Origin: Amphiscolops sp. MND2022
Taxonomy: Eukaryota
Assembly (NCBI GenBank): GCA_964187785.1
Contig: OZ076409.1
Span: forward strand, 32,242,001 to 32,302,000
Length of the DNA: 60,000 nt
Direction of reading: 5' to 3'
Shown here: positions 23,054 to 48,183 of the stretch, piece after piece
Layout: every line of letters starts with the position of its first letter
Numbering within the stretch: the stretch's first letter is position 1
Notes under the pieces: model-generated
The model's input: the letters and a program-made list of their open reading frames with translations, nothing else
What the model was told of the DNA's origin: nothing
Database searches by the model: none
Program-made: the position numbers and the translations under genes

Positions 23054-24593
23054 CTATTCCAGCCCTATACTCAATATCGACACATACACGCGGTTGTGCA
23101 AGACCACATGAATACCAGTGCCCTCAAACATGTTCGTTAGGGTGTGGTACAGATTGACCAACGAGAATGCGGGTCTCTCTGGATCCAGTATGGGCAAATG
23201 GACCCTTGCGGATCCTTTGTCCGTTAGGCACTGTATCAGGTGCGTCATACAACGCAAACAGTCATCAGTCAGCAATGGTGCACGCTGGCTTGCTCTGATT
23301 ATCAATAAATGAATACTCTGATTGCGATTGGGATTAATGTCAGGTGGGATGGTGAAGATCTCACCCACCTTAGGCCGTAGGGAAAACACATTCCCTTTGC
23401 CGCACTCCCGCAGCACATACCGCAGGGAAGCTGGATTAGTTTTCAGGTCAGCGGGGCACGCTAACACTATGTCGCCTACTACTTGCAAAAAATCGGTTAC
23501 GTCATACGAAATGTGTTCTGCTGAGTTTGGGTACAAGGCTCCCGGGTAGACTATCTCCACATCGAGCGTGACATTGCTCGATTATCACTGCTGGCTTTGA
23601 CCCATGTATCCAGAGTGCTCAGAGCGGCCTTCGGGGAAAGAGGAATCTCGAAAGTGTGAGTCCACTCATCCAGCAGTCGAATTCGGGGATAATTGGTGAA
23701 ACAGGTGATAATTAGTTCCAACCACCACGCGAATTTTGCCTTGCCTCGATACCAGTCAATGATGTGGAAAGAAAGTATCAAGTCCGCAGTGGTGAGGGTC
23801 CTTAGACCCTCTAGACAGGACAACAAGTGCAGCGGTTCCACTATCGCCTCCACTCGTGGAGCAGTAACCAGCAACCACCAATGCGGTGCTGGGCTATACA
23901 CCCTGCCGGGCTCCACATGAACTCCGTATTTATCGCATAACAGATCAGCAGTGATGCACCGGGCCATTTGCACGGGCTCTTGTTCGAAGTTGAATGATCC
24001 AAATGCAATGTTGCTGGGCACAGTGGGCATCACAGTGGCCAGGGTAAACTCTAGCCCCTTCCCATCGCTAGTCCACTCTTTGAATCGGGGACATGGGGCC
24101 TTTGCTACCCCAGGTGATGACAACTTCTCCAGAATGGTGTCCACCGGATGGTCTCCAGATCGTTCCACGGCGGAGTAGGTCTTCTCGGCCCTAACCGTAA
24201 GGCGGTGCACCAGATTTTCTTCCCGTTCTGGAGGAATGCCCCGGGCTCCAATGGGAACCCTCCGGTTCTCGTTTACGGCTAACAGGCAGAGGCAGTCTCG
24301 CAGTCTCGCAGCCCGCAAGTTCCGCATTAGTAGCGTGGCTGTCGCTTACTTCTCAGCTGGTATCTAGGAGCTTCAGAGGCCTCCGTCGGAGCCTCCGCAG
24401 ACCTTGGGGCTTCGGCTGCTGTTTCGGCTGGGACCGAAGTTTCGACTTTCGTTGGCGTTTCTTTCTTCCTTGTTCTTGCCTTTGCTCGGACCAGCCGTTT
24501 CTTTTGCGCCTTGGGTGGTCTCCTTCTCCCCCTTTTGAATGAAGGAGCGGTCACATGGGACACAGGGCGCACTGGACTGATCGTCACTTGCAT
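23054..24593 (-). pseudogene. Post-integrase Pol extension of B (AT-hook-like, Cys cluster, tandem macrodomain-like)
   Basis: KRGRRRPPK, PRY*CGTCGLRDCLC, RCITADLL..WLLVT and IVLACPADL..PKVGE..LLIIR..RVHLP..IHVVLHNR. Confidence 0.7.
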
Positions 24594-27500
24594 TGCTGAC
24601 AGATTTTAGAGGAATTTGAGGAACAGTTGGCCAGATGGGGTAATTGCTGAGGAAATCCGTTAACAATGGATTCGTCAACAAGGGTGCCGACGTTCCCGGC
24701 AACGACGACTGTTTCCCAGCCAGGAGAAGATACTTGTGGTGACGGAGAGCGCGCACGCTCATGGTCAGAGAATAGTTGAGGTAAGCGTTGAGTGGGTGAA
24801 ATCGATTGATCTGAAGAAAGCACGGGAATTTCAGGCTCAAATTGATCAGCATCGGCGGGATCAGGCGGTACCGGCAACATGACATCAGACAGTTCGTCGT
24901 CAGTACCCGAAGTGGAACAGTCAAACTGCTGATAGTGCATGCGCGAGCCTCCCGCGCAGAGTTTCGTGCGCAAGCGAGTGTCCATCCAGTGATGTCTGCG
25001 CGAAGGCAAAGACTCATCTGATGCCTCTGAAAGCAGTTGTTCAGTCTTGTACGAAGGTAGTGATTTGTTATCATCGACCACGTCGACGGAACGCTCAGGT
25101 TCAGGGTCCATGAGTACTACGACCTCTCCATTGTCCGCATGCGCTGCGGCAAGCTCCAGCGGTCCACTGTGGTGCGATTTGAGGCGCTCAAAATGAACCT
25201 TTTGGCCAGTGTCCAGCACATAGACACGACCGTCCTGAAAGATCTGTACCGCCTTGTGCGGGCCACGCCAAGCACGCATTAGCTTGGGGGAGCCTTTCTG
25301 CGGCACATAGCGGCAGAAGACCCAGACGAGCTCTCCCGGCTGGTAAGCTCGTGCTTGAATAGCGCAATCGTATTTCAATTTTTGACGCAGCTGAGCCTGT
25401 TGCGTATTACGTCGCACCAAATCGTGAATTTTTAGTTGGCGAGCCAACACATGATCGACGTACGCTTCATGCGTATCGAAGGATTTAGCTGCAAACTCAG
25501 GGTATAAAAAGGTAAGAGGAATTGCCTTCTCAACGCCCCGAGTTAGCATGTAGGGCGAGAAGCCAGTGGTGGCATGCCTTGTAGAATTGTAGGCACTCAT
25601 GACCTCATCAAGACACTGGTCCCAATCGCGCATGCGGCGCGAGCAAAAGACTTGCAGCAAGGTTAACAGCGTGCGGTTTTGGCGTTCTACCAAACCCTGA
25701 GTCCGTGGATGTCCTGCGGTGGAAGTCACTTTCGTGACGTGGGCTGCGTTTAAAAACTCGTTGGATACTTCGGCGGTCAAGTTCGGAGCATTGTCCGACT
25801 GCATACGAGTAGGTGTGCCATGACGGGCAAATAATTTTTGTAGCAGCAACCGAGACGTGGTCACAGCGTCATAGTCGTGATGACTGCAAGGAACCGCTTC
25901 CGCGAACTTGGAGAAATTGTCGATTATGACAAAGATGCCGGTATTGTTATTGTCAGAGGGGCAGATTTTCAGGTGGTCGTGCTGGACCAATTCGTCGAAG
26001 TATCCACTCTGGATGTGTTTGAGCTGGAATTGTACATCACCAGGCTTATCGCATACCTGTTGACAGGTGAGGCATTGGCCAGCATAGCGGCCAACACTGC
26101 GTCGGATGCCAGGCCATGTGTGACGTTCTTGAATCCAAGCGACCACTTTTGAAATGCCTTGGTGTCCCATGGCGTCGTGCGCATGGAACAAGATTTCGTG
26201 CTGGTACAGTTGAGGCATGATGATCATGCACGGACGTTCGTGCAGAAGGCGTTGGTTGGGAGTATTGCACACAAAGGACACCTTTTTTGTTGATAAACAA
26301 CAGATCCTTTTTCTGGCGAAAATAGTTACGTGCCAACTCACGCACGTTCTCAGGAAAGATGTCGTGGTCTATGGACTCGCTCTGCACCAATTTTTTTAGT
26401 GCTAACACATGGACATCACGGTTTTGAGCTAAGACCAAATCCTTAATCCCATGCACGGTGTGAGCATGTTCAAGAAGCTCAGTGTCGATGTCTCTGAGAG
26501 CAATGATTGAGTCACGTACAGCCGAGGGAGTACTTTGCAGCGTGGCTGCACTTGCTCCTGCAACTGAATACACGGTACGAGAAGGGACGTTAACAGCATG
26601 GGTTGGTAGCAAGTAGTCCTCGCTAGCCTCAGCCGTGATATCTATCCAGTCTTCCGGATAGTCTGGGTAGAAGTCTTTGTGCGACTGTAGCACGGGAGGG
26701 GGCTGAGGCGGTAAAGGCGCAGCTAACGCCTTCGCCTTCCTGTCCTGCCTGTTCGCACGTTGTGTACGGCGAAGCACGCGAAGCACTTGGTCAGGAGCTC
26801 TAGGCTCTAAATTCTGCAAGTGCGCAGGTAGATCGGGGTGATTTGGGATTATTCGACCTTGAAGGTTGAACCACGGGGCAATAGGGAGCTTGTCGAATTC
26901 GTCAGCTGAAAGGAAATTCCAACGCTCACCTGCGGCTGGCAGCTGCGCAAGCTGCTTTTCTCGCCATCGATATTCATTGGTTCGTTTGCTCAAGCCATCA
27001 GCGTTGCGATGCTGAGTTCGTGGGCGGTGTTCCACACGAAAGTGATACTTGTCCAAGGTCATAACCCATCGGCCAATCAACGCTTGGTCTGTGGAGTATG
27101 TTTTCAACCAGGACAAGGCTTGATTATCCACCCTCAGGGTGACCTTTCGAGGACAAAGGTAACTGTGATTTTTCACAATGAAGTAGTAGGCTGCAAACAT
27201 TTCCAGTTTGGGGGCTCCGTACTTAGCTTGCGTGGTGGTGAGTTTCTTGCTACCATAGACAATTGGTCTTAGGCGTCTTTCACCTGGAGGACCCTGCCAG
27301 TGGTGCAGGATGCCAGAGATGGCAACAGCGCTGGCATCGGTGTCCAGCACAAACTCTCCCTCGGAATCAGGCTGCGCAAGCGCAGTCGCCTCGATCAATG
27401 CTTTTTTGATTTCGTTAAACGCTTTTGTTGTTCGGGACCCCACGTGAAAGTAACGTTCAGCCCAGTGACGGCATGCAGGGGCACGACCAGCTTGGCGTGC

Positions 27501-30500
27501 CAGGGAATGAAATCGCGATAGTAGTTGGCGAATCCCAAGAAACTTTGCATCTCCCTTTTGTTGCGGGGGATCTTCCAGTCACGCAACTTGGCAACAGCTT
27601 TCGGGTCTGACTTTACGCCTTCTGCGGAGACCACACGTCCCAGGTACTTTATTTCTGATTTCATGAAGTCACATTTGGCTACGCGCATTTTGAAACCAGC
27701 ATTGCGGAGGCATTCAAAGATTTCGCGCAAGCGCGCCATGTGATCTTCCACAGTTTCGGTCGCAATCACGATATCATCGATATAGGCCATCACCATGCTG
27801 CCTTTGCGGTTGACAATCTTCCGTAGCGCTCGCGCTATTGCTCGCTGGAAGGTGGCTGATGCATTGCACAGGCCAAATGGCATCCGCCGCCATTCGAAAA
27901 GCCCTAACTCGCAGGCAAAAGCGGTCTTGTGGCGATCCGCCTTTCGCACGGGAATTTGCCAAAAGGCTATGCTGGTGAAAATTTTGGCGTTGCCCAGCCA
28001 TGCCAGGCTTTCATCGATGCGAGGCAAGGGGTAGGCATCCTTATTGGTTACCTCATTCAACGGGCGGAATTCGCAGCAAAAGCGCAACTCCCCGTTTTTC
28101 TTCTTTACCATTACGATGCCACTTGCCCAAGGGGACAGTGAAGGCTGTATCATCCCCAAGACTAGCAGGTTTCGCACCTCTTGGTCGGCGCGCTCTGCCT
28201 TTTCAGGGGACATCCTACGAGCACCTTCACGATGCGGTACAGCCCCAGGCTCCAGCTCCACCGTGTGTTTGGCGATGGTGCAGCGGACGATGTCAGCCTT
28301 ATGCTTCATAAACAAATCATCGAATTCATTGAGAATATTGCCTAGAGACTCGCAGGCGCTAGCGCCCCACAGGTTCTTAACCTCTTGTAACTGAGAGTCT
28401 GGCCCAGGAATTGGAGCCATCAGCTCCAGATCAGTGCGTTTACGAACTTCGCGTTCCGAAAGCCCTGCCTCACTAGGATCTGTCGAGGACAAAAACTCAA
28501 ATTGTGATGAAGAAGTCAACTCAGAAGCAGTGGATAGATTCATTTCACTGTACACTTTATAAACAAAATTTGCACGACTGTTGTCAGCTTCAGTTTCTTT
28601 GCTGGCCTTTGTAGGGGGTTCCAGATTCTGGGGCACAGCCTGATACACTAATGTCACAGGCACTACGGTGCCCAGTTGAACACCGCACCGCACATGCTAT
28701 GGGTTGCTGGTAAGGTTTATCAAACTCACGTACAATGTTCCTGTCTCACTGACAGTGGCCACGCTGTCCTCTAAAAAGACAACATTTTGCAATAAAGGAT
28801 CAGAAAATGAGGCGTTGAGCGCCACGGTCTGAAAGATCAATGGTTCAAGCGAGTCAGTGCTGAGCTTGGCTCTTGCTACTGTGCGCTCGAAAAACTGTAG
28901 GACCAAGTCGCTATCCAAGGCAACCGGAGTAGCTAGCGAAGTGTCACCTACCTGTGCGTGTGCATGATGCCAGACGGGCTTCACAGGTGCTCGCAGGACA
29001 ATTTTCATAGAGGTGAGATCGACTAGGACCTGACAGGAACGGAGGAAGTTCCGACCTAGCAGGAAGTCCTCCACACCCTTTTCATCGTCCACCACGACAA
29101 AGTTGGTTTCAAGCTCGTACCCTCCCAATTGGAAACGAATTTGCTCTGCCAAACCAAAAGTCTTTATTGTTTTTCCATTGGCAGCGTACAAGTCGACTTG
29201 ATAGGGCTTCAGGACAGTACCGGTTCGGGCAGCCACTCGATTGAAGGCGGAGAACGTCAATATTGATACGCCGGAACCAGTGTCCACCAATCCACGCAGC
29301 GGGATGAGTGCCGCATGGGGCACGACGAAAGAGACAACGAGCGACGCACGCTCGTCTATACGTGCCTCACCAGTGGGCTCTTGGTGGTTGATGTTGTAAC
29401 ACTTCAGTTCTTGGGGACCCAGGCATAGGCCAGGTGGGAATACATCCACCACCACGCAGGCCTCGAACTTCACAAACAAATCATCGAATTCATTGAGAAT
29501 ATTGCCTAGAGACTCGCAGGCGCTAGCGCCCCACAGGTTCTTAACCTCTTGTAACTGAGAGTCTGGCCCAGGAATTGGAGCCATCAGCTCCAGATCAGTG
29601 CGTTTACGAACTTCGCGTTCCGAAAGCCCTGCCTCACTAGGATCTGTCGAGGACAAAAACTCAAATTGTGATGAAGAAGTCAACTCAGAAGCAGTGGATA
29701 GATTCATTTCACTGTACACTTTATAAACAAAATTTGCACGACTGTTGTCAGCTTCAGTTTCTTTGCTGGCCTTTGTAGGGGGTTCCAGATTCTGGGGCAC
29801 AGCCTGATACACTAATGTCACAGGCACTACGGTGCCCAGTTGAACACCGCACCGCACATGCTATGGGTTGCTGGTAAGGTTTATCAAACTCACGTACAAT
29901 GTTCCTGTCTCACTGACAGTGGCCACGCTGTCCTCTAAAAAGACAACATTTTGCAATAAAGGATCAGAAAATGAGGCGTTGAGCGCCACGGTCTGAAAGA
30001 TCAATGGTTCAAGCGAGTCAGTGCTGAGCTTGGCTCTTGCTACTGTGCGCTCGAAAAGCTGTAGGACCAAGTCGCTATCCAAGGCAACCGGAGTAGCTAG
30101 CGAAGTGTCACCTACCTGTGCGTGTGCATGATGCCAGACGGGCTTCACAGGTGCTCGCAGGACAATTTTCATAGAGGTGAGATCGACTAGGACCTGACAG
30201 GAACGGAGGAAGTTCCGACCTAGCAGGAAGTCCTCCACACCCTTTTCATCGTCCACCACGACAAAGTTGGTTTCAAGCTCGTACCCTCCCAATTGGAAAC
30301 GAATTTGCTCTGCCAAACCAAAAGTCTTTATTGTTTTTCCATTGGCAGCGTACAAGTCGACTTGATAGGGCTTCAGGACAGTACCGGTTCGGGCAGCCAC
30401 TCGATTGAAGGCGGAGAACGTCAATATTGATACGCCGGAACCAGTGTCCACCAATCCACGCAGCGGGATGAGTGCCGCATGGGGCACGACGAAAGAGACA

Positions 30501-30990
30501 ACGAGCGACGCACGCTCGTCTATACGTGCCTCACCAGTGGGCTCTTGGTGGTTGATGTTGTAACACTTCAGTTCTTGGGGACCCAGGCATAGGCCAGGTG
30601 GGAATACATCCACCACCACGCAGGCCTCGAACTTCACATCTACGCCGTCCATTGTTGCGTAGACTGGCACTGTGAAATACGTCGTCAGGGTTTCAGATTC
30701 TCCAGGGACGTACCACTCTCGGGGACGGGGCAACTCGACTCGCTTGTAGAGGATGGATAATTCAACCCAAAGCTTCGCTAGGGTTAACGTTGGCCTGCGC
30801 ACTTGTTCGGCGGCTAGCATCAGGTGGATAGAGATCAACGCCCGTCCTTGTGGGTCGAACGTGGTAGGTTCTAAGCAGGTTTGATCTTGCTTGGCACCGC
30901 AAGTGATTGTTAGCGGGGTGTGGAATGCTGGCGGTTCCGCCGGATGTAGCATTATTACGCGATCATCCTCCAGGGGTACCGTGTGTGCGG
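24584..30990 (-). pseudogene. pol: pol of B (PR duplicated, RT, RNase H, IN), disrupted
   Basis: LVDTGSG (twice), YPLPRI, MPFGL, YIDD, LDTDAS, NADGLS, HDAMGH..CLTC, QSDN, GLVER. Confidence 0.95.
28310..30637 (-). repeat. In-frame 1164-bp tandem duplication spanning the protease
   Basis: 28310-29473 vs 29474-30637 are essentially identical. ORFs recur at a 1164-bp period. Confidence 0.96.
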
Positions 30991-31170
30991 CGACACCAGC
31001 CGACTCGACTTCGGGCCATCGATTGTAGGCGGATTCATCACCAGGTTTCGGGGCGTGGGAATGTTCGCCGCATTGCACATCAGCATAATCAAAGACTCCA
31101 CAGCTAGAGCATTGATGGATCCTGGGATAGCCCCGCAGGACACCATCAGTCACGTCCTCGGCGGTGATTT

Positions 31171-33488
31171 TCACGACTTCAGGTTCGGGGGCAGCCGGTG
31201 GTTTGCGAGTTTGGTCGCGACTGGGACAGTCTCGGGCAAAATGCCCAGTTTGGCCACAATTAAAGCAGGCATCCACAGGTAAGCGCACGGCAGGTTGTGC
31301 TGCTGCTGATTTGGCGGGGCAATGCTTGCCGGTGGGGGACGTATCACCCCTTGAGGTAGCATCTTTTTGTTGGGAGGTAGTGGTGCAAAGGGATGAGGTC
31401 TAAACCTCATAGCTAATCTGGGATCGTAGGGTTGTTGTGGGGGTTGCGTAGGTTTCGGGCGATTGCGCAGCAGTTGGCGGGTGGTGAAGCGCAGGGACTC
31501 CACCGTGGGTGATTCGGTCAGAAGGGCTTCCGAGGCGTACACTATGGCATGTTCCCGCCTCAATACTGGATCTCGCACACCTTCCATAAAACGCTGCAGG
31601 ATTTCATAACGCTTAGTAGTGATAGTCTCTTGCGGAAATCCCTGACTTCTAAGACCCTCTAGAGCGTCCAAATACTGCATCCAGTCTTCCTTTTCTTGCT
31701 GGACGCGGCATTGGAAGGGTTGCCGCACTTGCATGTGGTTCCCTCCAGCGCCAAAGCGACTGGACAGTAGCTCGAACACTTTCTCGGGGGTGTCGCGTTC
31801 AGATTCGGCTTTGTTGATGCTGTAATAGCGAGCTTCACCCTCGAGGTGACCAATGATGCTCCAGGCTCGGTCTTCGACCGAGACCTTGGTTTGGATCCTT
31901 TTCAGGTATCTCTGCATGATTAGGATCCATCCATCGATAGACCCGTCTTTGGAGCTGCGATACACGTTGGGCCTTGTTTGGGCCAAGTCCCTCCCTGCAA
32001 GCAGAGGTGCCAGTTCCTTAGACATGGCTTTGGATATGGCTGCCGTGAACCTCAGTTGCTCAGGGGAGATGATTTCTGCCTCTTCGTCCCTCGGTTCCAC
32101 CTCACGCGCTCAGCCCTCGCTACCGTGGCTGGCTTGCACGGATAGTCTCTTCTTTCTTTCGAGTGCTCTCGCGCAAGGAGTGCCCGAGGGCATTCCGTCG
32201 TCGGCTGTCAAGTATAATGAATCTGGTCCGGACACCGTGATAGGGGCCGTCATGTATGCGGCTCCATCAGTTTGGGACCCTAACGTGGCTTTGGTACTGG
32301 ATAAATCAACTTCGGCAGAGGAATCTAGATAGATTGTTGACATCGGGTCCACACCTTGATCTCGAGTGGTGCCTATTGCTGCAGAGGGCATCGATGAATC
32401 CGCTGAGTCGTGGGGTCCTCTCATCTGCACTCGTGCAGGTTTGCGCTCCGCGTCAGGCATGGTGAGCACTAAGTTCCCGGCTGCCCCCATTGCTTCGGGC
32501 CTCGGGCACCGTCGACCTGGAGGTGCTGGGTTTTAGTGCACTCACCAGTTCAGACTTTATCGCTCGATTTGGGTGCGGCAGTTCCGGGGCTCGGGCCGGG
32601 CCCCCGGTTTGCACTTCTTCACTCACGCTGGGTTGTCGCGGGAATGACCTCTTGCGCCTCATGATGTTGATGGCGTTGAGTACCGTATGCATTTGGTTAA
32701 TCAAGTCGTTGATCTGGGTCTCCACGCGCAACTCGCGGGCCATCAGCATATCGTTCATTTCGCCCATTCGGTGGCCTAATGCATCCATTCGAGCATTCTG
32801 CACGTTTTGCGCGGTACGCAACTGGTCGTTGACCTGCAACCTTTCTCGCATTGTCGTCTGCATCGTCCTGATGATCTCTACGATGGCGTGGTGTTGCTCG
32901 TTGCATTCAGCACGATTGCTGGCTAGCCCGGCTAAAGCGCGTTGGGTCTCGGCTTGGGCATCCAATAGTGCTGTTTTGCACACCGAAGACCGTTGTGACG
33001 AGGACACTGAATCAGTCATGCTCCGCACACGAGATGCCTCTGGGCGGCGCTGGCCTGCATTCACCATGGGCGGTCGAACTTTCTTGTGTTTTCCATAGGC
33101 ACATACTCGAGTGGGTCCTCGAGCGATCCCACGCCCTTGTGGTCTCGCATAACTCATCCCTCCCACATAGGTGAGGTCCTGGTTTGCTGGGATTCGCCTC
33201 CTCACCTAGGGGTGCGCGCGAGCACCCTTCCTCAGCGGCTAGTTCATTGGTCACATTTGAATTGGGCCAACCTTCTTCCAGCTCATTGGTCCTCTCCCGG
33301 CAGGTCTCATCAACCCATTGCTCTATTCGGCGGGAATTTCCCGAAACGACTGAACCCTCGGAGGGAGGAACCATAACGGCCAACTCCTCCTTGCGTTGTT
33401 GTTCATTGGTGACTTCGTCAGACATGACGTCTGAAAAACGTGAACCGTCCATCGAAGATTCAATGGTGACCCAAGACTGCGAACTCAT
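31171..33488 (-). pseudogene. gag: gag of B with long N-terminal coiled-coil-like region and CCHC knuckle
   Basis: GWILIMQRYL..AWSII.HLEGEAR..QYLDALEGLRSQGFP and CFNCGQTGHFARDC. Frameshifts present. Confidence 0.88.
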
Positions 33489-35994
33489 GTTGGATTTCAC
33501 CGGTTCTAGTGCGGCTAACACGCCTAATGTCAGCAACCGAGCAGGCGCTAGCAACTCAGGGGGTCTTGGACTATGTTTCCGAAGATGTCAGGGCCTCTAG
33601 ATCAAGATCAACCCTTCACTCGTCCCGGTGGGAACTTAAGAAAATTCATGTTTTTCAACGTCCAAGATTTTTCTAAACACGTTCTAAGGCTCGTAGGCTG
33701 TTCAAATTTGCACAACGCTTTTCCACAAGCACACTGGGCCAGAAAATTAACCTGGTTTGGGACAAAAAGTTCTCAGTCACTTGCAGCAAGAATTTCAAAG
33801 GATTTTTGGATTTTCCAAAATTCGCACAACAACACTTGAGAGGCTCGTGTGTGCGCCAGAAGCGCCGTATCAAGCCCAAAATTGACCAGCAGGTTTTAGG
33901 TACACGTAGGTCTACGAAAATGATCACAGTTTTGAGCTGCGCTTTTTCTACACCGTTTCACCTAGGTACGGACGTGCGGTACCACTATGTACCCAAATTT
34001 ACTGTTTTTCACGTCTTTCTCAATATTGCGGTCCACTGGAAAGAGCTAGCAAGCTCAAATTTTCTGCAGCGACGTAAAAACTAGCACAGGTTTTGATGGT
34101 AGGCCGCAATATAGCCCCACCCGTCGGCTAAGGTGCCCGGGTTACTCGGGAAAATTGAGAAAAAACTACCTTTTTGCCCACCTTTTTGGGTGCCACGTTT
34201 TTCCTATTTTCTCAACAAGTATCACACAGATCGGCATCAAACTTGGTAGTTAATGCCAGTGGGCACCTTCAATGCCACTAAAACGGTCGAATTGAAGCGC
34301 GAGCGTTTATTTGGGGTTTCGACCCAATATGTACGTTACACAAAAAAAACACTGTTTTTGAAGACTTTTTTCACAAATTGACCAAGAGGATCACCTCAGA
34401 AAGTGATACGGCGGGCAAAGTGGGACCAATGTGTTGCCCCACTATCCGTAGCACTGGGATAAGCTCTCAATTGGTGGTGCCCGTTAGGTATAAGGCACTG
34501 ACAGTCCTGCAGTTTTGGATTTTTTCGGTCCTCTTACGCTTCTCTGAAGTCGAAACGTCAGAGAGCTTTCCTCGCCTTTGGTGACCGATACGCTAACCAA
34601 ATTTTCGGCACTAACGTTAATTTTAATGGTGATTGCGAGAATGCAACCACTTTGCGGCTAGGGTTCAGGGATCGATGTCTCGACCATAGCTCAGAGACAG
34701 TCTGGTTTTATGGAAAATTGATCAAATTCAGCGCGTTTTTCCACTTTTCTCCGCACCAAATGAAAAATTTCACGCGCGGTTTTCACCACCACGCGTTGTT
34801 TTTACTATAAAAACAGAAAATGAGATCGTTCCTGCCCGCTCCCTTCAAACAAACTTTGCTCTCAAGACTTTCAGACAATGCACTTTCAATGGCTGAAAAT
34901 CACAAGTTTTCCGTACTGTATCAACCCCAGGCTGCCTGAATCCGCTACTAAAGTTGCAGTTAGTGTCCTGTGGGTTAGTTACGTTTAAAGCAACACCGTA
35001 CACCGCTTTTTTACATCTCTACATTTGTGTAGGTTCGTGTTTTGGGTGCCTTTTAGGCCAAGTTTCCACTTTTCCCTTACTTTTCTGGCACCAAATCGGC
35101 ACTTTTATTACCACTGAAGGCCAAAATACTGCCTTTCGTGCCTTGTACCAGTTTTTTGAGCCTTGTAGTTGCTTTTTTTGTAATTTTCACAAAGTTTTCC
35201 TGGTTCCATTGAGCACTAGTGCTCGAAACCAAGAAGAACACCGAAAACACGCGAAATTAAGGTTTTTCTCTCCAAGTGCCATCTTTTTCACAGAAAAACA
35301 CTTCGTGGGGTTCCGTTACATTTGTGATAAAATTTTAATGACCTGCACCAACGAGTCCTCGTCAAAAAAGGTGCATTTTCAAAAGTTTCGCCAACCATGA
35401 GCCATTTGAGCGACGCCTCTGGTCACATGGGGTGCATCTTCACCACGCTTTTTCTCCACATCTAGACCAGATAGAGACACGCGGTTTGGACCATTAGCAT
35501 CGTCTGCTGTTGCACTTGCTGTCCATCAAAAACCATGCCTCTAGGACGTCTCCACGAGAAATGAGAGTAAAAAGTAGGCAACACACATTTTGACCCTTCC
35601 CTCGCCTCGCTGGCTCGTGGTCAGCCATCCACCAGTTACCTTCTTGCATGGCATTAAATGGCTGAAAATAGCTTGAAAAACCTGTTAGACACCCGTAGCC
35701 ACGCGCTACGGTTCTCTGTACCTGCAAAAAATACCCGCTGATAGGTACACAACACATCACACAAAATTAGCAATTTCCTTATAAAAAACCTAAAAACACC
35801 ATTTTCGCAACTGAAAACGTGATTTTTTCGGCGTTTCCTCTGGTTCAACGCCTCTCCCGGTTCCAGTAGGACGTGGTACGACTAAAAAAGGCAAAACTCT
35901 GCTTCTCTCCTTTTCCAGAGTCGAAACGGGCTTGGCGCCGATCACCAGGGGGCCAAATCTTTTAAAAAACCGCTAGGGAAAGTTTCCCAAGACG

Positions 35995-36012
35995 ATCCCT
36001 CTGTGGTCGCCA
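35995..36012 (-). promoter_or_regulatory. Primer-binding site, tRNA-Arg-like
   Basis: TGGCGACCACAGAGGGAT is complementary to a tRNA 3' end ...TCCCTCTGTGGTCGCCA resembling animal tRNA-Arg(UCG). Identical 18-mer in D. Confidence 0.8.
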
Positions 36013-36027
36013 AAAAATGAGTTTCCA

Positions 36028-36731
36028 TGTAACGATAAGCGCTGGCGCTTGAACCGCGACTTCGAATGGAGGAACCAAAGCAGCGGATAGGATCCGGGAC
36101 ATAGATCTCCGCGGCCCCGGCTCATTTTCCCTCCGAAGGAGCTTGTCCCAAGGTGGGGGAACCGTCTGGTAAGAAACTCTCTGGCCTGGTCCTAGTCTGT
36201 AGTTGTAAAAAGCATAACTCAAGACCACTGCTCAACTAGCCTTTAAAAAGGGGGCTGAAAACCAAAGAAGGTTGAACCATAGTCTTGGAGAATCTGAGAA
36301 AATCGACATCGCCAAATTGGGTAGATAAATACAGATATTAAGGGCAGCTCTCGAGCATATCAATTCACTGCAAGGAAAAACATTATAAAATCAAGAGTTT
36401 CAGTCATTTGATGGAAATTGACCTCGGCTTCCCAGCGCTAGCGCAGGTCACCACACAGGAAATTGCGGGGATTCTTAGGCAAGCATCGGGAACACTGGTT
36501 TCTGCTACTAAAGCAACGTCAATCTCCCAGGGATGGGCACAATACCGTGTTCTGCAGATGGAATAGACGTCTATACAGTCGTCTCTTGTGCTCGTTCTTC
36601 GCGGGCGGCATTTTCTGCTTTTTGCCGTACGATTTCTGACAGGTCTTTCACCTTTAACATGTTTGGGTGCCACGTCAGACCTTGCACGAATTTTTGCATC
36701 GAAAATTTCGTTGTGGGCAGTTGCCGTTACA
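36028..36731 (-). repeat. 5' LTR of B (704 bp)
   Basis: Direct repeat of 17049-17765 with scattered substitutions and a ~14-bp indel. Confidence 0.96.
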
Positions 36732-37241: not shown

Positions 37242-37876
37242 TGTAACGTCAGCCACTGGCATGACAAAATTTCGATGAAAAATTCGAATTGTGCGATATC
37301 GAAACAGAAGAATCAAAATGGCCGAACTAGCAGGTACGAAAAAGAATGAACAAAAAGAGAGACCACGCGGAGATCGAGCAAGAAACCGAGCACGTGTGAA
37401 AAAGTTGCAGAAAAAGATGAAGAATTGCCAGAAGATGAAGAAACATCAGCAGAAAGATGTTGTGGAATGTTGTGCCATCTCCTTGGGAAATCAACAACAT
37501 CTGCAGAGCATTGCCAGAGGCAAAAATGGATGATGGACTGAAAACTGTAACGTAACTGGGGACTATCCCCGTTTTTCTTTAATATTCCCCCTTTTTCTTT
37601 GGAATATTTGGATGATGTATGACCTTCCAGGTCTTTTTAGATCTTATTCATCAAATACGATGTTTTCCAGCTAAATACTGTTTTGACCTCGGAAGAATGT
37701 AGGAACTCGTAGGAACGTTAGGATACGTTTTTACAGGCTTGTGGGGCGTGTCCCCCTAGGAGACCATTTTGGGATCAAAAACTAGTGTCTAGGCATGTAG
37801 TAAGTCAACTGTCTCCTGTTTAAGCATCCTAGGCATTGTCCCTGTCCTAGATGTGCGTCGCTAGCCGGTCGTTACA
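37242..37876 (+). repeat. 5' LTR of D (635 bp, ~72-bp internal deletion)
   Basis: TGTAACG...CGTTACA termini, followed by spacer and PBS. Confidence 0.93.
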
Positions 37877-37892
37877 TCTGGAATAGTTTTTA

Positions 37893-37910
37893 TGGCGACC
37901 ACAGAGGGAT
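37893..37910 (+). promoter_or_regulatory. Primer-binding site, tRNA-Arg-like
   Basis: TGGCGACCACAGAGGGAT, same as in B. Confidence 0.8.
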
Positions 37911-40577
37911 AATTTTCATTTTGCGTACAAGTAGGATCAACTTCTGCCTTCCGGCCCTGTTAGGTCCGGATCTTGGAAAAACTCAGGGGAGGGTCCTAGA
38001 TTATTTTTATAATCTTTTTCCAGCCCTCTGGGTTTTGTACTAGTATTGTTCCTGCGTTTTTTGCATATTTTTGAAGTCTATCTAGAGAAATTAACAGTTT
38101 CTAACAGTGTACCCCCTTTAACCTTACCAAAACCTAATGAAAAAGCTATTCCGGCCTATCCGGAACGTGTTTTAAAGGGTTTTCTAGCTCATTTTCAGCT
38201 AATTTGCAATGTATGGGGACAGAGAGGACGAACACCGAAGGTTCCCACTAGCTGTGATGACGTGGTGACGTCCTACACGACTGCTCCTCCCACGCCCCTG
38301 TGATTGCTGTATACCACGTCAAACGGGTGAAATTGGCTATTTTCTTAATTTTACGGCCCAAAAAGACTATGCCCAAGCCACCTATTCCCATTATAACTAA
38401 CTGAGAAAAATACCCAGAGGGTATTCAGATCAGTTGTTAAAAAATTTGAGCTCGAAAACCTTGAAAATAACTCCATTTATAGCTCAAATACCGAAATTTC
38501 CGATTTTGAAAGCCAATATTCTGCCAAATAGAGTAAGGCCAGTGGTAATACTGAAAAAAACGTTCCGATAGACCCACTGGGTCAGGAACAAAAAGTTTTG
38601 CGGGGCCATTTTTCCAAAATAGCAAAAAATTCAGCGATTTTTGTTAAAAAATCGTCAAATTTGGCCATTTTGACCCAATTTGACGAGGGCAAAGCCTTGG
38701 ACGTTAGCTTCCAAGCTTCCGAATTCGCCCAAAAATCTTTCTTCCTAGCTTGGTAGTACGAGACACTACTACCAAGTTGTTTCCTAAGGTTCCCCAATAG
38801 AAATTGAAACTTTAACTACTTGTTTCTTTCAATACACATAGACCCGAGTAGAGGACCCCATAGACCTGAGAGATATAACATCAAAAATAATAACTGAACG
38901 AACCCCATCCCCATTAAATAAGTTGTCACGCTTTCTTACAATACTATTGGAAGAATTTTGAACATCCAAGAACCGATAGACAAAAGTTTCTTGACGAAAA
39001 CACGTTATTTCAGTGTTGTTCCGAGAGTGTAAAAAGTGCACATAAAAAATTTTTTAGAAATCCAATTTGGAACCTACCAGGTTTCGCTTGCTTAATTTTT
39101 GTTAGTAAAAACCCTCACGTTGCAAGTGCAGAAAACCGCGAGCGATTCCAACCAGTGGTTGCCGAGAAATTGCCAAAAACGTGAGATTTTAGTGACAATT
39201 TCGGAATATTGGTATAGTGTTCCAAGAGCAGGTCGGAATCTTTCGCAGCACGAGCAGCTCAAAACGAATTACACCATCGTGTTGACCGCCAAAAGTTACG
39301 TTACTGGTGTAATTTTCATTGCGCTAGCACTGCTAGTCCTCGAGAAATCATAACCGCGGTTTCGCTCAAAAAGTGTACGAAATTGTAGTAAAAATTGAAA
39401 TTTAGTTGAGCATAGTGCAATACCTTGCAGATACCCCAGCACCAAAAATCTTGCATTTTATTACGCACGGCACTAGATCCCGACGATTTGTGCAATTTGA
39501 GCAGCCGGCTCCTAGCCAAAGCGGAGAAATTGGCATTTTTGTGAGTTTTGACCCGAAAAAGTGATACCCCTGGTATATCAAGGTTTTGTCATTTCGGATC
39601 ACTGCATATTGATTCAGACACCTCGCCGCCGTATTTTTCGGTTACGTGGGCAAAAGTTACGCTCGCCTGCAAATTTTCAGGTGGCTGGGACGTCTAGATG
39701 GCGAACTTGACCACTTTTTGCGAATTTTACGACATAATCAAATTTTCAAAAAACATTGTTAACCGTAACGTCCATAGAGTCAATTTCTGTACAATCGGCG
39801 TTAAACTTCCAACGATTCAGCTAGTGTACTATATGGTGTGAAATTTTTAAGTTGCTACGAGTCCTGGAAACATTTTCCACCCTTTCCAGACGTGCCAATC
39901 GACGACAAATTCACTGATTTTACGAAAATTGAACGGAAAATTCTACACTTTCTGTCCCAAACAACCTCCAAACGGACCTGAAAATAACCCCTCCATAAAC
40001 AGAATACCCTCTGCGTCTCCGATTGAGTCTTTTTTCCATACACACCCCCAAATCCCATCCATCCCACCGTACCTGAATCCATAAATCGAGAAAACTCAGT
40101 GAGAAACAATTTCAACTAGTCGAATGAGCGCATAGCCCTAAAACTAATTGGACCAACACTATTCATTCCAGTCAACCACTCCTCAACTCAATAGGCCCTT
40201 CCACAGCCTACCCGATTAGCCAGCAACTCGTAAACAGTCAAATCAATCAAAATTTTTGTTTTAGTGTAAACCTAATCCTCTCCACTTAGCGGAGACCGGG
40301 ATGAAAACTTTAGTTGATCTTAGAACGTATATTACCACCAGCCCAATTACCGAAGCTAGTAAAAAAACCTTTTTGTTAACCTCGGTCCCAATCAAAGTGA
40401 AATGGTCCCATTTAATACTTGTCGTTTCTCGTGTTGAAGTTCCACTTGCCGCAATTCATACCTCTTATCATTCGTTGTCCTTTCTTCCTGGAGGGAAGGG
40501 TGAGACAAATAACTCCGTCAGTTAAAAAACCTCCTTTTAAATTATAATTGAATTCCATACCTCAAAAATTGGCCAAA

Positions 40578-40782
40578 ATGGACTGGGACGTACCCGAAAA
40601 CCTCCAAGCTACAGTTCCATTTGGTAGCATGACAGAAAACACTACTCGATGGGAGACTCTTGCTGACAATCTCCAAGAACCAACCATTACAAATGTATTT
40701 TCAGAACTCATGTCTGACTGTATTCCCAACGCAGAACAAAACACGGAGATGAGAACCGCAGCCGAACAGCTCGATTCGTCGC
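40578..40782 (+). pseudogene. gag: gag N-terminal fragment of D
   Basis: MDWDVPENLQAT...AAEQLDSS matches ORF 57159..57611 of C. Confidence 0.85.
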
Positions 40783-40850
40783 TAGCCGGTCGTTACATCT
40801 GGAATAGTTTTTATAAAAACAATTCCAGATGTAACGACCGGCTAGCGACG
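40777..40850. repeat. 74-bp near-perfect palindrome of two U5 ends plus spacer
   Basis: 37-bp arms, one mismatch, no loop, centre at 40813/40814. Confidence 0.95.
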
Positions 40851-41546
40851 CACATCTAGGAAGAGGGACAATGCCTAGGATGCTTAAACAGGAGACCGTT
40901 GACTTACTACATGCCTAGACACTAGTTTTTGATCCCAAAAAGGTCTCTTAGGGGGACTTTTCTGACGTCGAAGGAGGCTTCTCAAATTAGAGCTCCGAAG
41001 CGACGCGCCGGCACTCTCAAAGTCCGGACACGCCCCACAAGCCTGTAAAAACGTATCCTAAGGTTTCTAGTACGTTCCTACGAGTTCCTACATACTTCCG
41101 AGGTCAAAACAATATTTAGCTGGAAAAAATCGTATTTGGTGAATAAGATCTAAAAAGACCTGGAAGGTCATACATCATCCAAATATTCCAAGGAAAAAGG
41201 GGAATATTAAAGAAAAACGGGGATAGGCCCCAGTTACGTTACAGTTTTCAGTCCATCATCCAAATTTTGCCTCTGGCAATGCTCTGCAGATGTTGTTGAT
41301 TTCCCAAGGAGATGGAACAACATTCCGATAATCTTTCTGCTGATGTTTTTTCATCTTCTGGCAATTCTTCATCTTTTTGTGCAACTTTTTCACACGTGCT
41401 CTGTTTCTTGCTTGCTCTCCGCGTGGTCTCTCTTTTTGTTCATTCTTTTGGTACCTGCTAGGTCGGCCATTTTGATTCTGCTATTTCGATATCGCACATT
41501 TCGAATTTTTCATCGAAATTTTGTCATGCCAGTGGCTGACGTTACA
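40830..41546 (-). repeat. 3' LTR of C (717 bp)
   Basis: TGTAACG...CGTTACA termini with adjacent PPT at 41547. Confidence 0.94.
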
Positions 41547-42095: not shown

Positions 42096-45000
42096 TCACT
42101 CATTATTCTGGCTCTGTTGCGAGTCAAAAACGGATGATGTTATTGCTGACTCCTGGTTAGTAGACGGTTCCGCCACTAAGGGAGGATACTGCATGGAGTC
42201 GTCGATGGTGAGCAAATTATTCAGCTCTGAGTCTATATCAGCGTCCATTTGTGATATTCCCGTCTCGGGTTCATCTCGGTCAGGGGTTGCTCCGTCGGAT
42301 AACGTGAAATTATCTTCAGTCATTGGTTCATCGTTGGGCTTTATGGCAACGGGTAGATTCTCCTGATCTTCCTCCATTTGGGTCTCAGTTATTTCTGAGG
42401 GTAACCCACTGGATGTTGTCTGCTGTGAGCTGCCAGGGGCAGCCGCATTTGTTGCGCTGTTTTGGTGGGTGGTGGTTTCCTGTGGGAAATCGGGTAGGTT
42501 GTTGGCTAATTCTATATGACCATACTGCATAAACAAACTTTTGAAGATTTGGATTCCACGAGCATAGTCTTCGCCAACAAAGTCTCATCGTTCTTTCTGT
42601 CTGCTGTGTAGATATAAAAATTTTTCCAGCGCAGCGCGCGGAATATTGGGGACGATTGTACTGATTGGCAAAGCTTTTCTGTTCTGTTCTTTGGCCACCG
42701 AGGGCGTCTTGGCTTTCATGCGCAACGACGTCTGGTGTATTGCGAGATCCACTAAGTCTGGTTTTGACCAGCATGTTGTCATGTCTAGTATGCGAGCTGA
42801 GTGTGCGCGGGGACTAGTTCGGTCACTATACATTCGTGATGTGTCGCATATATAAGGGTATCGTAATTCGCTGGGTTCTTCCCCTCGCTTTCTGCCGCCC
42901 AGTCTCCGAACTGTGGTAGCTGTAACCCTCAAAATTACTTCGGCATTCCAATCCGTAAAGGAGTCCGCCCCGCCTGTACTGAGGTTCAGAGAAGATGTAG
43001 CCACGCAATTGGATGGAAATCCATTGGCATTGGGAGGGCGGATCGCGCATGTGCCTTTATGATGGAGGTAAAGTTGTGCTCAACTTGCTTCTTGTCTTTT
43101 ATAACCGTGTAGGCCATGGGCGGTCGCAGAGATGTAAAGCTGGCTACTACTCTGTGGTAGGTGGGATCCGGCTGGAGTCCATCTGTCGTTACGAAGTGCA
43201 ATATGGAGAGGGTGGGGGTGTTTGCCGCCATACGTAGGACTTGTGGCGGATATCTGAGTGCCATGACTGCACCAAAGATTGGCCAGACTATGGGAGAGAT
43301 TAGATGCATTAGGTCTTCCGTCTCCACTAACATGAGAGTGGCAAGTTGTGTGGGAAATAAGAAGCCAGGAAATTGATTGGGTTCTCTGTTGATGGCAGGG
43401 TTTGCATCCAGGGGATGCAATATACCCGCAACGTTGGCCCAGGTTGAGTAGATCCAGGTGAGGATAGCTTTGATAATGAGTTCTAGTTGTTTCTTCAGTT
43501 GTAGGGGACTCGCTGGGTCCAAGGCGCATAAAATTGCTTGCAGCCAACTTTTCTGATTCTGGGCGTACACCAGGTAACTGAAAAGCGACAAGTTTCCTTT
43601 GTCAAAGATTAGTTTCTGGAGCACACCTGAGGGTCCTTTATAGACTGCGTGCATGCCGACAGCCATTAGATACGCCAAAATTTCACTTATGGTGGCTTTC
43701 TGCATCGCTCCCACGTATAGGCGCACTTGCTGGTCGTCGAGATTGAATTCGGCCTGGACGAAACTAGGGAGCCAGAATGGGGAAATGTTGTACAAGAGTA
43801 CAGGGACTGGAATTTCTAGTCGCAGGGCGACTTGATTAAGGGTTTCATGCTAGGCTTGGTGCCAGGTTTGATATGTGTGCCCGGGTTCTATTTCGATTTG
43901 TTTTGCCAGGTCTCGTGTCATCACTACTAGGAGCGTCAGGGTGAGGGATGCCATCTCGAGCTTAGCGTCTATTGCTATCTCTGCTATGGGGATTACAGTA
44001 GTGTTGGTTCGCTCTGCCTTGATCATCTCTGTTTCTTTGAAAAGGGCTAGCAGCTCCTTATGAAATTTCGGATCGTGGGTTTTATCATCGCGGGTGGATT
44101 CGTCTCTTCGTTCGTACCAGTGGTTATCCACCAGGTGCTTCCCCTCGTTCTCATTGGGGTCATTTACCTTGCGTACCCCATTCTCGTCTAAAGACCTGAT
44201 CGACATTTGCATCCCATAGTCGTAGGCCGTCGCCTCGTCCACCAAGAGTTGCGAATTGCCTCGGTATCCTGTAAACCCTTGAACAGCTTTAGATACTTCT
44301 GCTAAGAAGGCTGGATACGACGCTTCGCAGGGACGCCATGTTGTGGCGTTGATTCTCAGGTTCGGTGCCACGATGTAAAAGTGCAAATCCCTTGCGTAAG
44401 ATGCTTCTAGCACCAAATACAAAAATTGTTGCAATGCTTTTGGGAGATGCATATACCCAGGGGGTGAGACAAACACGGTTCCCGTATTTGGCTTCTTGTT
44501 CTTCATCGTTGTGGCAATGTTAGACATCGTTTCCACGTATGCCACAACTTCGTCTGTGATGAATCCTTCTGTGTATCGAGTGCTTTGCATGTCGAAATAT
44601 CGCAATGATCCTCGCAGGGCGAGGTGGGCAATCACATTTGAATACACTAGGATTGGTGGAAGAGGTATGGTTTCTGCCGCCGCTGGCGTGAAGAATTTGT
44701 CGGTCACCTCCGCCATCTCGCTGAGCGTGGTGCAGGGCATATTCATCAATCTAACATCAATCAGAGTATTACTTGAGTTGTATGAAGATTTGATGGTCGA
44801 GTCAACAAAGAGAGCGATTCTTGTCTTTTGCAATAAGTCGTTTCCCATTGGCAGCAGGCTGATGGGGTCCCTCGCGTAGTTCTTCGATTGTAAGTGATTC
44901 TCCCCAAATCTCCCAGGTCTCTGACGAGTGAGTCGCTCAGTCAATGGTTGTAGTGGTTGCAGGTACGTAGAGTTACTGTTCTGCAAATCCCCCCTGAGAC

Positions 45001-46259
45001 GTTCGAACCATGGTGGGACTCCTCCATCATTGGTAAATATCGGTGGCTTGACTGGCCTGGTGTAGACTACTCCAATGTTGGCCCTCTCTATAGTACGCTG
45101 CGTGCTTTGTTCCCCTTTGCTGTTAGCGCTCGCAAACTTTTGTTTTGGGGGATTTTCTTCATCGGGTGTACTCGGTACTTCGCGTTGGAGACGCACTGCG
45201 TCTCTCGCCGCTATGTCTAGTTGTTTTAATTCAGTTGCAGTGAGCAGCTCTCTGGCTACTTTTTGTCTTCTGGCTTCCGGTTGACTGGGGGATGGCGCTG
45301 GTATTCCCCTGTTTGATCTTGAGCTAGTTTGCTTGTCTTGTTCTTAGCTCTTTTCGCTGCGTTTATTTTATCGCGAAGGTCTATGGGAGCGTTGTTGCTT
45401 TTTCTTTCTTCCCGCTGCTCTTCCCTTTGGCGCTCTTGTAGTTTAGGGTCCTTTTGGAAGCCTATCAGCTTGCTGGGCTCATTTCGGGAGGGTTTGGTGT
45501 TAGATGTGGAGGTGTCAATTCTTCACCGGAATTTTGAAAAGTGACTGTTCTGGTTGGGCGACTTTCTTTGGCTTGCTCTTGCGTTGTTGTTTGGTTGGAT
45601 TCAGTAAGGCTCACTTGCACCCCTCCCCCCTGAAAGGTAGAAGGAAGCATGAAGCTTGAAGTGGATTGTGTAAGCGAGCGGACGCCCACCGATGCCAGAG
45701 GCATAGGTGGTGTTAGGATTGGAGGTGATACCAAGGGTAGGGTGCAGCTGAAAGTTGTGGTTTCGGAAGGGGGGAGTTGAATCACAGTTTGTATTGGTGT
45801 AGGCTGCGGTGCTTGGAATAAAGGTTGAATCGTAGGGGGAGAGATTCTGAATGACCGTTCTTGATCCATTGGAGGCCTATTAGGTTCTCCGTAAAGCATG
45901 TGGGAGCAGTGATCGAATAAATTATGAGTTAGATTATAACCATGCCAAATGCCATCACGGAAAGTAGCGGAACGCTCAAGCGGCCCGATACTGCTAGTAA
46001 TGGTCAATAGGACCTCTGGGTGCGCTGCTTGCGCTTGCATTTGAGCAACGATCATGGCAAAGCCAGCGATCATGATGGGGGTGGCCCCATCTTGCAAAGC
46101 TTGTTGGACTAAGGCTAGCTGGTCCATTCGACCATTAACCTCGCCCACCGACGGAAGAATGCTGGAAGAAGTAGCACGTTGTTGGGGAGATTGCTGATTG
46201 CTTGGTGCAGGCATGCGGTTACGTGATGAGGGGTCCATGGCAGGTGAGTTCGATAGCAC
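42096..46259 (-). pseudogene. ORF3 of C, ~1390 codons, SGNH-like domain, disrupted
   Basis: ORFs ending at 46259, 45196, 43795, 43004 and 42536. Motifs RIALFVDST, YSNVIAH, FVSPPG, APNLR..WRPCEASY. Confidence 0.8.
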
Positions 46260-46283
46260 GGATGAGGAATATGATAATCATTA

Positions 46284-48093
46284 CAGTGCACAGGCAAGCT
46301 TTTTGCTGCTTTTCGTGGAATCCGGGACACGAAAATTGAGAAAAGACGTGGAATCCAGGACAAAATTTCTCTTTGATGTTAAGCGTGTCTTGGATTCCAC
46401 GACAGTGCTTGTCCTGGATTCCACGCCAATACTGCTGCTATAATGACACTTTTGCAGCTGCTCTCTGATTGGTCCGCTAATTTTGAGTAATCATTTTAAA
46501 TTGATTCAATTTTATATCAAAGGAAATTGTTTTGATTGACACGAAAAATCCAAGAAGTACGAATAGAGATACTCGTAACTGGTACCAAAAATGAAGCATG
46601 TCATCGATTAATGGCAGATTGTGATGATCTGGCAGTTTGTTCAAAACGGTACTAAACTTGAAATTACGAATATTTGTGTAATATAACCAAGTGAGAGCGA
46701 AATGACAAATAACAATTCAAACAAATGGTAGTTTAGCATAATTTGCCCAATTTTGAACTCAAGTGACATTTGTATGACTGCCATGTTATTCAAAAACAGA
46801 AACAATGCAAGATCAGTCAATAATTTCGTGAGACCAGGATCAAACTTTGTGACAATTTGTGTCCAAAATTATTCATGATTAAATCCACCTTTGAATTACT
46901 TTTTTAGCCGAATTTCGTTGCTATTAGAAGCCAGAGGGACGATATGTCCATAATATTTTTCGTGAGCACAAAAAGGAGGCCTTTCAGTATACTAAAATGA
47001 AAAAAAAATTTTGTGATATTTTGGTCCCAATCGTGAGTAAAAAAATTACTCACGATTGAGACCAAAATTAGTCATGAATAATTTCATTTTTGAATTGCAT
47101 TTTTAGCCAAATTTCGTTGTTATTAGAAGTCAGACAGTTAAAATATGTCCCTAATATCTTTCGTGAGGACAAAAAGGAGGCCTTTCAGTATACTAAAATG
47201 AAAAAAACTTTGTGATATTTTGGTCCCAATCGTGAGTAAAAAATTACTCACGATTGGGACCAAAATTAGTCATGATTAATTTCACTTTTGAGTTGCATTT
47301 TTAGCCAAAATTTGTTGCTATTAGAAATCAGAGAGACAAAATATGTCCATAATATCTTTGGAGCGAACAAAAGCCGGCCACTAGAACTGCTAACAAATCG
47401 AAAGTGTACCATTTCATCAAAATCTGCCAGTTTTCAATAGTAAGCCAGATATGAATAAATGTCAGAATATTCTAAAACGTCATTGAATTTTGAGCAATTT
47501 TTCCATGACACTAGTATAGAATATCAAAATTTCATTATTGACGTACAATAATACAGTCAGAATTAAATATTAACGTACTATCTACCCCCTTTGGTAGTTG
47601 TTTTCTTACAGTTTAAGATATGTATATGGTTTCCACGACACATGTATAATGATATGGTCTTACTTTCCACAGTCGCTTCAAAAGCCGAATTTTGTGTGAT
47701 ATTGGTGTGATAGTCTGAATCATTTTGAATAAATATACGAAAAGTAGTGCATGATATTATGTTTGTTCAGTCTTCCATTTGAATTTAATTAAAGAAGAGA
47801 TGCCGCGTATCGCGTCGAGCATAAAAAGTCGTGGAATCCAGTAAATTTATGATTTCTGCAATCTGATTGGTTCATTTTGCGAAACTTACGTTTTTGTGGA
47901 ATCCGGGACACCGCTGCATGCCGACAGTTCGTACAGCTAAGCATTTGTTACTGGAATCCACGACAAAATCCGTGGAATCCGGGACAAATGACGTAATTTG
48001 CCAATTTTGCACGGTTAAAGGTACGGTCGTGGAATCCGAGATATTGAAAGCACTATGTTGCGCTTTGAGCAAATAAGGCTTGCCTGTGCACTC
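46284..48093. mobile_element. Non-autonomous TIR DNA transposon (1.8 kb) nested in C
   Basis: Terminal inverted repeat AGTGCACAGGCAAGC / GCTTGCCTGTGCACT flanked by TA. Subterminal GTGGAATCC(R)GGACA arrays at both ends. AT-rich, no transposase ORF, absent from A and B. Confidence 0.85.
46846..47360. repeat. ~200-bp tandem repeat (about 2.5 units) with internal hairpins
   Basis: CAAAAAGGAGGCCTTTCAGTATACTAAAATG and CCAAAATTAGTCATG recur at ~200-bp spacing. Confidence 0.85.
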
Positions 48094-48165
48094 TAATGAT
48101 ATAGGAGAAAATGAGTGATGGTGCAATCTGGGGTAGCTGCGCAAGGGCGAAGCAACATGACAAAA

Positions 48166-48183
48166 CTGAAAAACAAGTTATAC
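48166..48183 (-). promoter_or_regulatory. Putative splice acceptor for ORF3 of C
   Basis: Minus strand GTATAACTTGTTTTTCAG, positionally equivalent to the site in A. Confidence 0.45.

Follow-up and report, generated by a model that had tools for sequence, protein, structure and literature searches.

The primer binding site (PBS) of an LTR retrotransposon usually lies within a few nucleotides of the long terminal repeat (LTR), and integrase typically trims about 2 nt from the cDNA end. The window analysed here, a 60,000-nt stretch of contig OZ076409.1 from Amphiscolops sp. MND2022, contains elements in which the PBS is displaced past the CA that terminates the 5' LTR, by 15 nt in element B and 16 nt in element D, as the first-pass annotation had reported. 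The question raised by this locus is what becomes of the intervening spacer: whether it forms an extension of the right end of the linear cDNA, and how such an extension would be lost on integration.

Several large LTR elements are nested in the window, A and D on the plus strand (D from 37242) and B and E on the minus strand, with B spanning 36731>17049 (approximately 19.7 kb, including extra ORFs) and E continuing beyond the window from its 3' LTR (41546>40830; Table 1). Their LTRs are bounded by TG...CA and their reading frames are interrupted. Pfam families follow the order zinc knuckle, protease, reverse transcriptase (RT), RNase H and integrase in B and E, and comprise RT, RNase H and integrase in A; the gag-pol of B also has a long C-terminal extension and contains a 1164-nt tandem duplication. 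The integrase core is a normal D,D35E with a spacing of 35 in all three (A, B and E). The best solved-structure match is Ty3 of Saccharomyces cerevisiae (PDB 7q5b and 4ol8; RT, E 1.8e-43 and 1.4e-42; integrase, E 1.4e-26), which has the same domain order as B, and on domain order and this match, rather than on a tree, the elements are Ty3/gypsy LTR retrotransposons. The B integrase has 333 database relatives, and the 120 listed are all on ENA contigs. Distant relatives were found at 78 metagenome loci and one genome locus, with integrase identities of 26-51%; those at 35% identity in L131, L135 and L150 have uninterrupted frames of approximately 2700 codons, and L150 carries an additional frame of 1839 codons.

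The elements also carry regions outside the canonical domains. A conserved region at 48418-49503 (-), 9868-10877 (+) and 23063-24054 (-), which is fused behind the integrase in database copies P0046 and P0067, gave an Atlas macro-domain lead (0.86) and no Pfam match, and the single-sequence fold of this macro-like domain was poor (pLDDT 39). Downstream of pol, E, A and B each contain a large additional ORF region (42096-46277 (-), 11121-15406 (+) and 18525-22761 (-), respectively; mutually 30-55% identical, with a relative in L127). Its leads from the Atlas are clusters of PC-esterase/NXPE-like type (0.88-0.89, for 12-16% of members), and it is not an obvious env. When env was sought as a test for errantiviruses, the extra ORFs gave no Pfam family, and the Atlas leads were to macro-like or esterase-like folds, not fusogens. 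Tandem duplications lie in gag/protease at 204-4091 (3 x 1292 nt, 97%) and 28304-30638 (2 x 1164 nt, 99.8%), and a gag/protease repeat with a 3324-nt offset lies at 56053-60000 (100% over the visible 624 nt); assembly errors or recent duplication could account for the latter two. A 198-nt tandem repeat of 2.5 copies (46863-47359) lies in an AT-rich stretch of approximately 2 kb between the pol and the extra ORFs of E, possibly an inserted non-autonomous element.

Table 1. Coordinates of the LTR elements and of their termini in the window.
Feature	Position	Strand	Description
3' LTR of A	15907..16610	+	Approximately 78% identical to D/E LTRs; stops at CA without spacer
3' LTR of B	17049..17765	-	717 nt; purine tract before; ends TTACA without spacer
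Broken gag-pol of B	23054..33587	-	Zinc knuckle, protease, RT, RNase H, integrase (D,D35E)
PBS of B	35995..36012	-	18 nt; tRNA-Arg-type 3' end
LTR-PBS spacer of B	36013..36027	-	15 nt, TGGAAACTCATTTTT, 27% GC
5' LTR of B	36028..36731	-	704 nt; 7-bp terminal inverted repeat; ends CGTTACA
Candidate target-site duplication of D/E dimer, ATTCC	37237-37241		5 bp preceding D 5' LTR
5' LTR of D	37242..37876	+	635 nt; ends CGTTACA
LTR-PBS spacer of D	37877..37892	+	16 nt, TCTGGAATAGTTTTTA, 25% GC
PBS of D	37893..37910	+	Identical to PBS of B
Leader and gag start of D	37911..40776	+	95.4% identical to E where aligned; deletion-truncated
Left palindrome arm	40777..40813	+	Final 21 nt of LTR and whole 16-nt spacer (40798-40813)
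Spacer behind E 3' LTR	40814..40829	-	16 nt; meets other spacer tip at 40813|40814
3' LTR of E	40830..41546	-	717 nt; purine tract before; 96.0% identical to D 5' LTR
Internal region of E	42096..60000	-	Extra ORFs, gag-pol, leader; 5' LTR beyond window

The LTRs of B and D are barely related, with no local BLAST match between them, and the longest substring common to the 200 nt behind their 5' LTRs is the same 18-mer, at offsets of 15 and 16 (36012>35995 in B and 37893-37910 in D), in agreement with the earlier claim of an identical PBS. None of 2000 random pairs of 200-nt segments drawn from both leaders shared more than 12 nt, so this coincidence is not due to chance. The spacers are AT-rich (25-27% GC vs 55-60% in the adjoining 20 nt of LTR), and a spacer of 14-16 nt is present at all four PBS-bearing LTR ends from the window and the database copies described below. 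The B and D spacers also share the reading N-S-F, which was treated as chance.

The complement of the 18-mer equals 17 of 18 nt of the 3' end of a phage tRNA-Arg(TCT) called by ARAGORN (L196). A pattern scan of viral contigs with the 18-mer gave two matches, both of them ARAGORN tRNA genes (L196 and L195), and the second of these (L195, 97-173), a phage tRNA, has a Trp anticodon but shares its 3' end with the L196 tRNA-Arg. Other pattern and protein scans of the viral contigs returned either nothing or unrelated sequences, and a scan of the window found no Rfam family and no tRNA gene. Ends of the form ...GTGGTCGCCA are given as Arg UCG/UCU in the available part of supplement 1 of PMC13524379. 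From these comparisons, made with phage and other-animal tRNAs and not the host's own, we infer that the PBS is of tRNA-Arg type and that such a tRNA is used.

A different primer arrangement would give an ordinary cDNA end: the 18-mer might not be the working site, and priming might occur near the LTR from the proximal TGG, another RNA or self-priming. TGGAA does lie close to the LTR in both window spacers, but the spacer sequences and the position of TGG vary (+1 in B, +3 in D) while the 18-mer is invariant, and in database copy P0276 a Thr replaces Gly, so that the GG of TGG is lost. RNA folding of the U5-spacer-PBS region gave no significant fold (z -0.1 to -1.1), which also counts against this arrangement. 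The junction between D and E described below keeps the whole spacer and stops at the PBS, which excludes proximal-TGG priming at that junction. Priming from the proximal TGG, which the first-pass annotation had set against its own proposal, thus finds its motif shifting, lost in one copy and bypassed at the junction, and LTR-proximal priming is extremely unlikely. Pairing of the spacer TGGAA with the tRNA anticodon loop is a weak lead, given the absence of GG in P0276, and a priming role for the spacer is likewise a lead only; in HIV, an A-rich loop some 10 nt before the PBS contacts the tRNA (PMC3185550, available in part), but the present region has no significant fold and the shared motif is altered in P0276.

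The spacer is absent from LTR ends that meet unrelated DNA. Comparison of the LTR ends of B (17765>17049 vs the 5' LTR, 97.2% identical) bore out the earlier observation that its 3' LTR ends at TTACA without the spacer, and the 3' LTR of A likewise stops at CA. Terminal inverted repeats of 7-9 bp end at this same CA in all five window LTRs, and a purine tract abuts the TG of each 3' LTR (3/3; A, B and E).

Further copies of the B family were sought in a protein database with a probe made from a chance ORF that starts 33 codons before the LTR end; the spacer contains no stop in this frame, so its retention would be visible there. Two protein searches, in which 3 of 3 and 4 of 19 candidates were accepted, gave six distinct proteins from contigs of unequal size, all of them protein predictions whose underlying DNA was not seen. 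P0271 and P0276 read through the spacer and PBS into the leader, with spacers of 14 and 15 nt by frame, a difference for which a homopolymer error could account. In P0272-P0275 the similarity ends past the CA codon, and both the PBS and a full spacer are absent; P0272, which has 2 of 4 residues in common with the spacer as read in P0276, is ambiguous. The junction residue of P0274 and P0275 is Gln, which means that these copies lack the spacer from its very first base. The D/E family offered no usable ORF for probing the protein database. Counting A, B and P0272-P0275, none of six LTR ends joined to unrelated DNA keeps the full spacer (one ambiguous), a result that runs against general retention of the spacer by 3' LTRs, which the first-pass annotation had named as contrary evidence, and that supports its proposal of a U5 extension lost on integration.

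A comparison of target-site duplications (TSDs) was possible for B alone, the partners of the other elements being outside the window. The flanks of B (17044-17048 vs 36732-36736) match at 2/4, 3/5 or 3/6 positions and provide no clean TSD; two changes in five TSD bases would be rare at an LTR divergence of about 2.9% (an estimated 1%), so B may have arisen by recombination or by irregular insertion. Its two ends are therefore not proven to derive from one concerted integration. The 3' flank of B is weakly similar to spacer plus PBS from 10 nt past the CA, and 48 of 3684 null windows reached the same score or more (in one of eight tests); a retained spacer should be approximately 97% identical, so this likeness was treated as chance. 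Behind the 3' LTR of A, the 8 nt that follow the CA (16611-16618) equal the first 8 nt of the D spacer reverse complement, that is, the tip of an unprocessed end. This match, noticed post hoc against a background of 3 in 18940 positions, may be a coincidence or may mark the joining of a processed end to the tip of a tail.

The first-pass annotation had missed the junction between D and E. Here two LTR right ends (40797 and 40830), each with a 16-nt spacer, are joined to each other, forming a loopless palindrome (40777-40850) with 37-bp arms, one mismatch and its centre at 40813|40814; the next longest loopless palindrome in the window has arms of 10. The right arm is the 3' LTR of E with its full spacer, backed by the purine tract and internal domain, and the left arm is fused to the truncated gag of D through a microhomology of 9/10 nt to the LTR end. 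The junction is compatible with blunt joining and equally with an overlap of 2 nt between ends that each carry one PBS base, and the arms contain no PBS beyond at most that one base. A frame of 93 codons (40578-40856, +) runs from the gag start of D across the deletion and the palindrome, probably by chance.

The centre of the palindrome coincides with the boundary between spacer and PBS, which is where a tRNA-primed cDNA must end. This position suggests that two unprocessed right ends were joined, and it lends further support to the proposed U5 extension. That the junction arose from cDNA ends is likely, as judged from a single case whose predicted TSD partner lies outside the window, and D/E is probably a fossil of the unprocessed end. 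A library fold-back was considered as its source and ruled out, because the long inverted arms (D vs E) differ by 4-5%.

The same palindrome could have formed in the chromosome, by a fold-back or inverted duplication at an LTR-spacer-PBS sequence such as an LTR common to tandem elements, in which case the extension would rest on textbook logic and LTR comparisons alone. The junction is a single case in a window rich in rearrangements, and the 2 nt of the overlap reading are a microhomology that template switching could use. A chromosomal event would, however, have had to place the centre within 1 nt of the obligatory end of a tRNA-primed cDNA, to leave arms without PBS beyond at most one base, and to involve a right arm that is a true 3' LTR with purine tract and internal domain behind it, and this origin is unlikely.

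Both D/E-family 3' ends in the window retain the spacer, so spacer removal in this family rests on the related element A. These two ends (2/2) would equally be expected if the LTR of the D/E family truly included the 16 nt and its 3' LTRs normally kept them, leaving a removable spacer in B only. Both ends are joined to each other rather than to host DNA, however, and the terminal inverted repeat ends at the CA, as does element A (78% identical), while the spacer does not itself end in CA; inclusion of the 16 nt in the LTR is very unlikely.

Together, the junction, the LTR comparisons and the PBS make it very probable that the linear cDNA carries a right-end extension of 14-16 bp. In the mechanism that best explains these observations, a host tRNA-Arg would prime minus-strand DNA at the 18-nt PBS, 14-16 nt beyond the integrase attachment site, and reverse transcription would copy the spacer, giving a right cDNA end that consists of the LTR-terminal CA followed by an AT-rich extension of 14-16 bp. 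Few if any extra bases would be present at the left end, at which TG directly follows the purine tract. Integrase would recognise the internal CA and nick there in one 3'-processing step, perhaps assisted by melting of the tail, which would be easier given its low GC content relative to the adjoining LTR, and host repair would remove the long 5' flap after strand transfer. At D/E, two unprocessed ends would have been joined tip to tip into an inverted dimer that was inserted through its left ends, after which the left arm of the unstable palindrome would have lost most of its length by microhomology deletion. The probability that this whole explanation is correct (tRNA-Arg priming, extension, internal integrase cut and end-joined dimer) is estimated at roughly 60%.

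Within this mechanism, the extension was probably removed by a single internal cut of integrase. HIV integrase reportedly requires a subterminal site. Internal cleavage at LTR-LTR palindromes is within the capacity of retroviral integrases (PMC1180852 and PMC3185514, each available in part), and the usual 3' processing takes off 2-3 nt (PMC2615609, available in part). The extension might instead be made and then shortened by a host or particle nuclease acting on the AT-rich tail, leaving an ordinary integrase to trim the final bases at the CA. Such prior trimming fits every junction in this dataset equally well, and it agrees with the ordinary integrase core, with the 2-3 nt removed by known integrases and with the weaker duplex of an AT-rich tail. 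Both ends at the D/E junction are nevertheless full length within 1 nt, none of the six junctions has a clearly part-trimmed spacer (one ambiguous), and Pfam identified no extra nuclease domain in the elements, whose extra ORFs are poorly characterised; prior trimming is the less expected route, with perhaps a modest chance of being correct.

Under the single internal cut, the lineage would, tentatively, have uncoupled the primer site from the integrase site, with the whole tail cut once and at the right end only, the spacer retained for priming, and a dimer of uncut cDNA kept in the chromosome. In general descriptions, integrases remove 2-3 nt and need the CA near the DNA end. A natural lineage that routinely loses 14-16 bp exactly at the CA would, if this is true, offer a test of the depth at which integrase still cuts, of its handling of two ends that differ so greatly, and of the repair of a long 5' flap. 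A fixed record of the cDNA terminus, for which 2-LTR circles must normally be sequenced, would also be provided by the U5-U5 junction. For annotation, searches in which the PBS must lie 0-5 bp from the LTR would overlook the mismatched primer sites of such elements.

Ty3 has a cDNA end extension of 2 nt, and its PBS is bipartite, unlike the contiguous 18-nt PBS of B. The Arg-type PBS first suggested plant Tat elements (Ogre, Retand and TatI-III), a clade with an additional archaeal-type RNase H domain (PMC6317226, available in part); this assignment was rejected, as Pfam found no second RNase H family in 42 frames, nor at a laxer cut-off. The Athila/Calypso lineage differs in its PBS, which is of tRNA-Asp type at 5 bp as opposed to Arg-type at 14-16 nt here. 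Among the relatives, LTR end and PBS were both seen in only three, on metagenome contigs (L159, L168 and L172; integrase identity 27-31%), with spacers of 4, 2 and 3 nt, respectively.

Published surveys place most PBSs close to the LTR. In the first of two parts of supplement 3 of PMC13524379 (44 rows, 32 with a PBS), 27 of 32 PBSs start no more than 5 nt from the LTR end and the other five lie at 7, 9, 13, 27 and 29 nt; the LTR ends there are BLAST-defined and three of the five outliers carry two mismatches, so these offsets are unverified. Similar long-offset outliers occur in part 2 of 34 of supplement 1 of the same paper, and long LTR-PBS offsets may therefore exist elsewhere. In PMC6317226, the PBS was sought within 50 bp behind plant LTRs, and the available text gives no distances. 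The available parts of PMC11054761, PMC5445492, PMC2253517, PMC5371799, PMC13332604 and PMC9578601 contain no spacer of this length. Across the literature covered, in partial texts and with most subscription papers and Repbase outside its scope, neither a 14-16-nt LTR-PBS spacer nor an integrated U5-U5 retrotransposon dimer was found.

Closer likenesses are found in parts of this arrangement. Ligated unprocessed ends record the true terminus in 2-LTR junctions of foamy virus and HIV, where integrase can cut an internal junction (PMC1180852, PMC3185514 and PMC13332604, in their available parts); those are U5-U3 circle junctions with extensions of 2-3 nt, whereas the junction described here is U5-U5, lies between two molecules and is chromosomally fixed. 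Calypso and Diaspora, plant Ty3/gypsy elements of the Athila lineage, are also large, with a long leader and an 18-nt PBS some bases past the LTR, but their gap is 5 bp, the tRNA is Asp, and the available text has no record of an unprocessed end (PMC1142308). In Candida albicans LTR families, the PBS lies 2-10 bp past the LTR, compared with 14-16 here, and the accessible portion of the source contains no evidence on end processing; it terms a short LTR-PBS gap common in the gypsy class (PMC4139406). MuERV-L and HERV-E have a 5-nt linker between 5' LTR and PBS, shorter than the 14-16 nt of the present elements, and deletion of the linker lowered retrotransposition approximately 4-fold (PMC5930517, available in part). 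Some 3' LTRs keep the linker (10 of 26 experimental junctions and approximately 6.5% of genomic proviruses), and in this retrovirus-class system the retained piece includes the PBS and abuts host DNA (same partial text). In the present window, unlike MuERV-L, the ends that keep the spacer are joined solely to each other, and no host junction keeps it in full (0/6, one ambiguous). The spacer is approximately three times the length of the MuERV-L linker and exceeds the 10 bp of Candida, and it extends a kind of linker of which shorter examples are already published.
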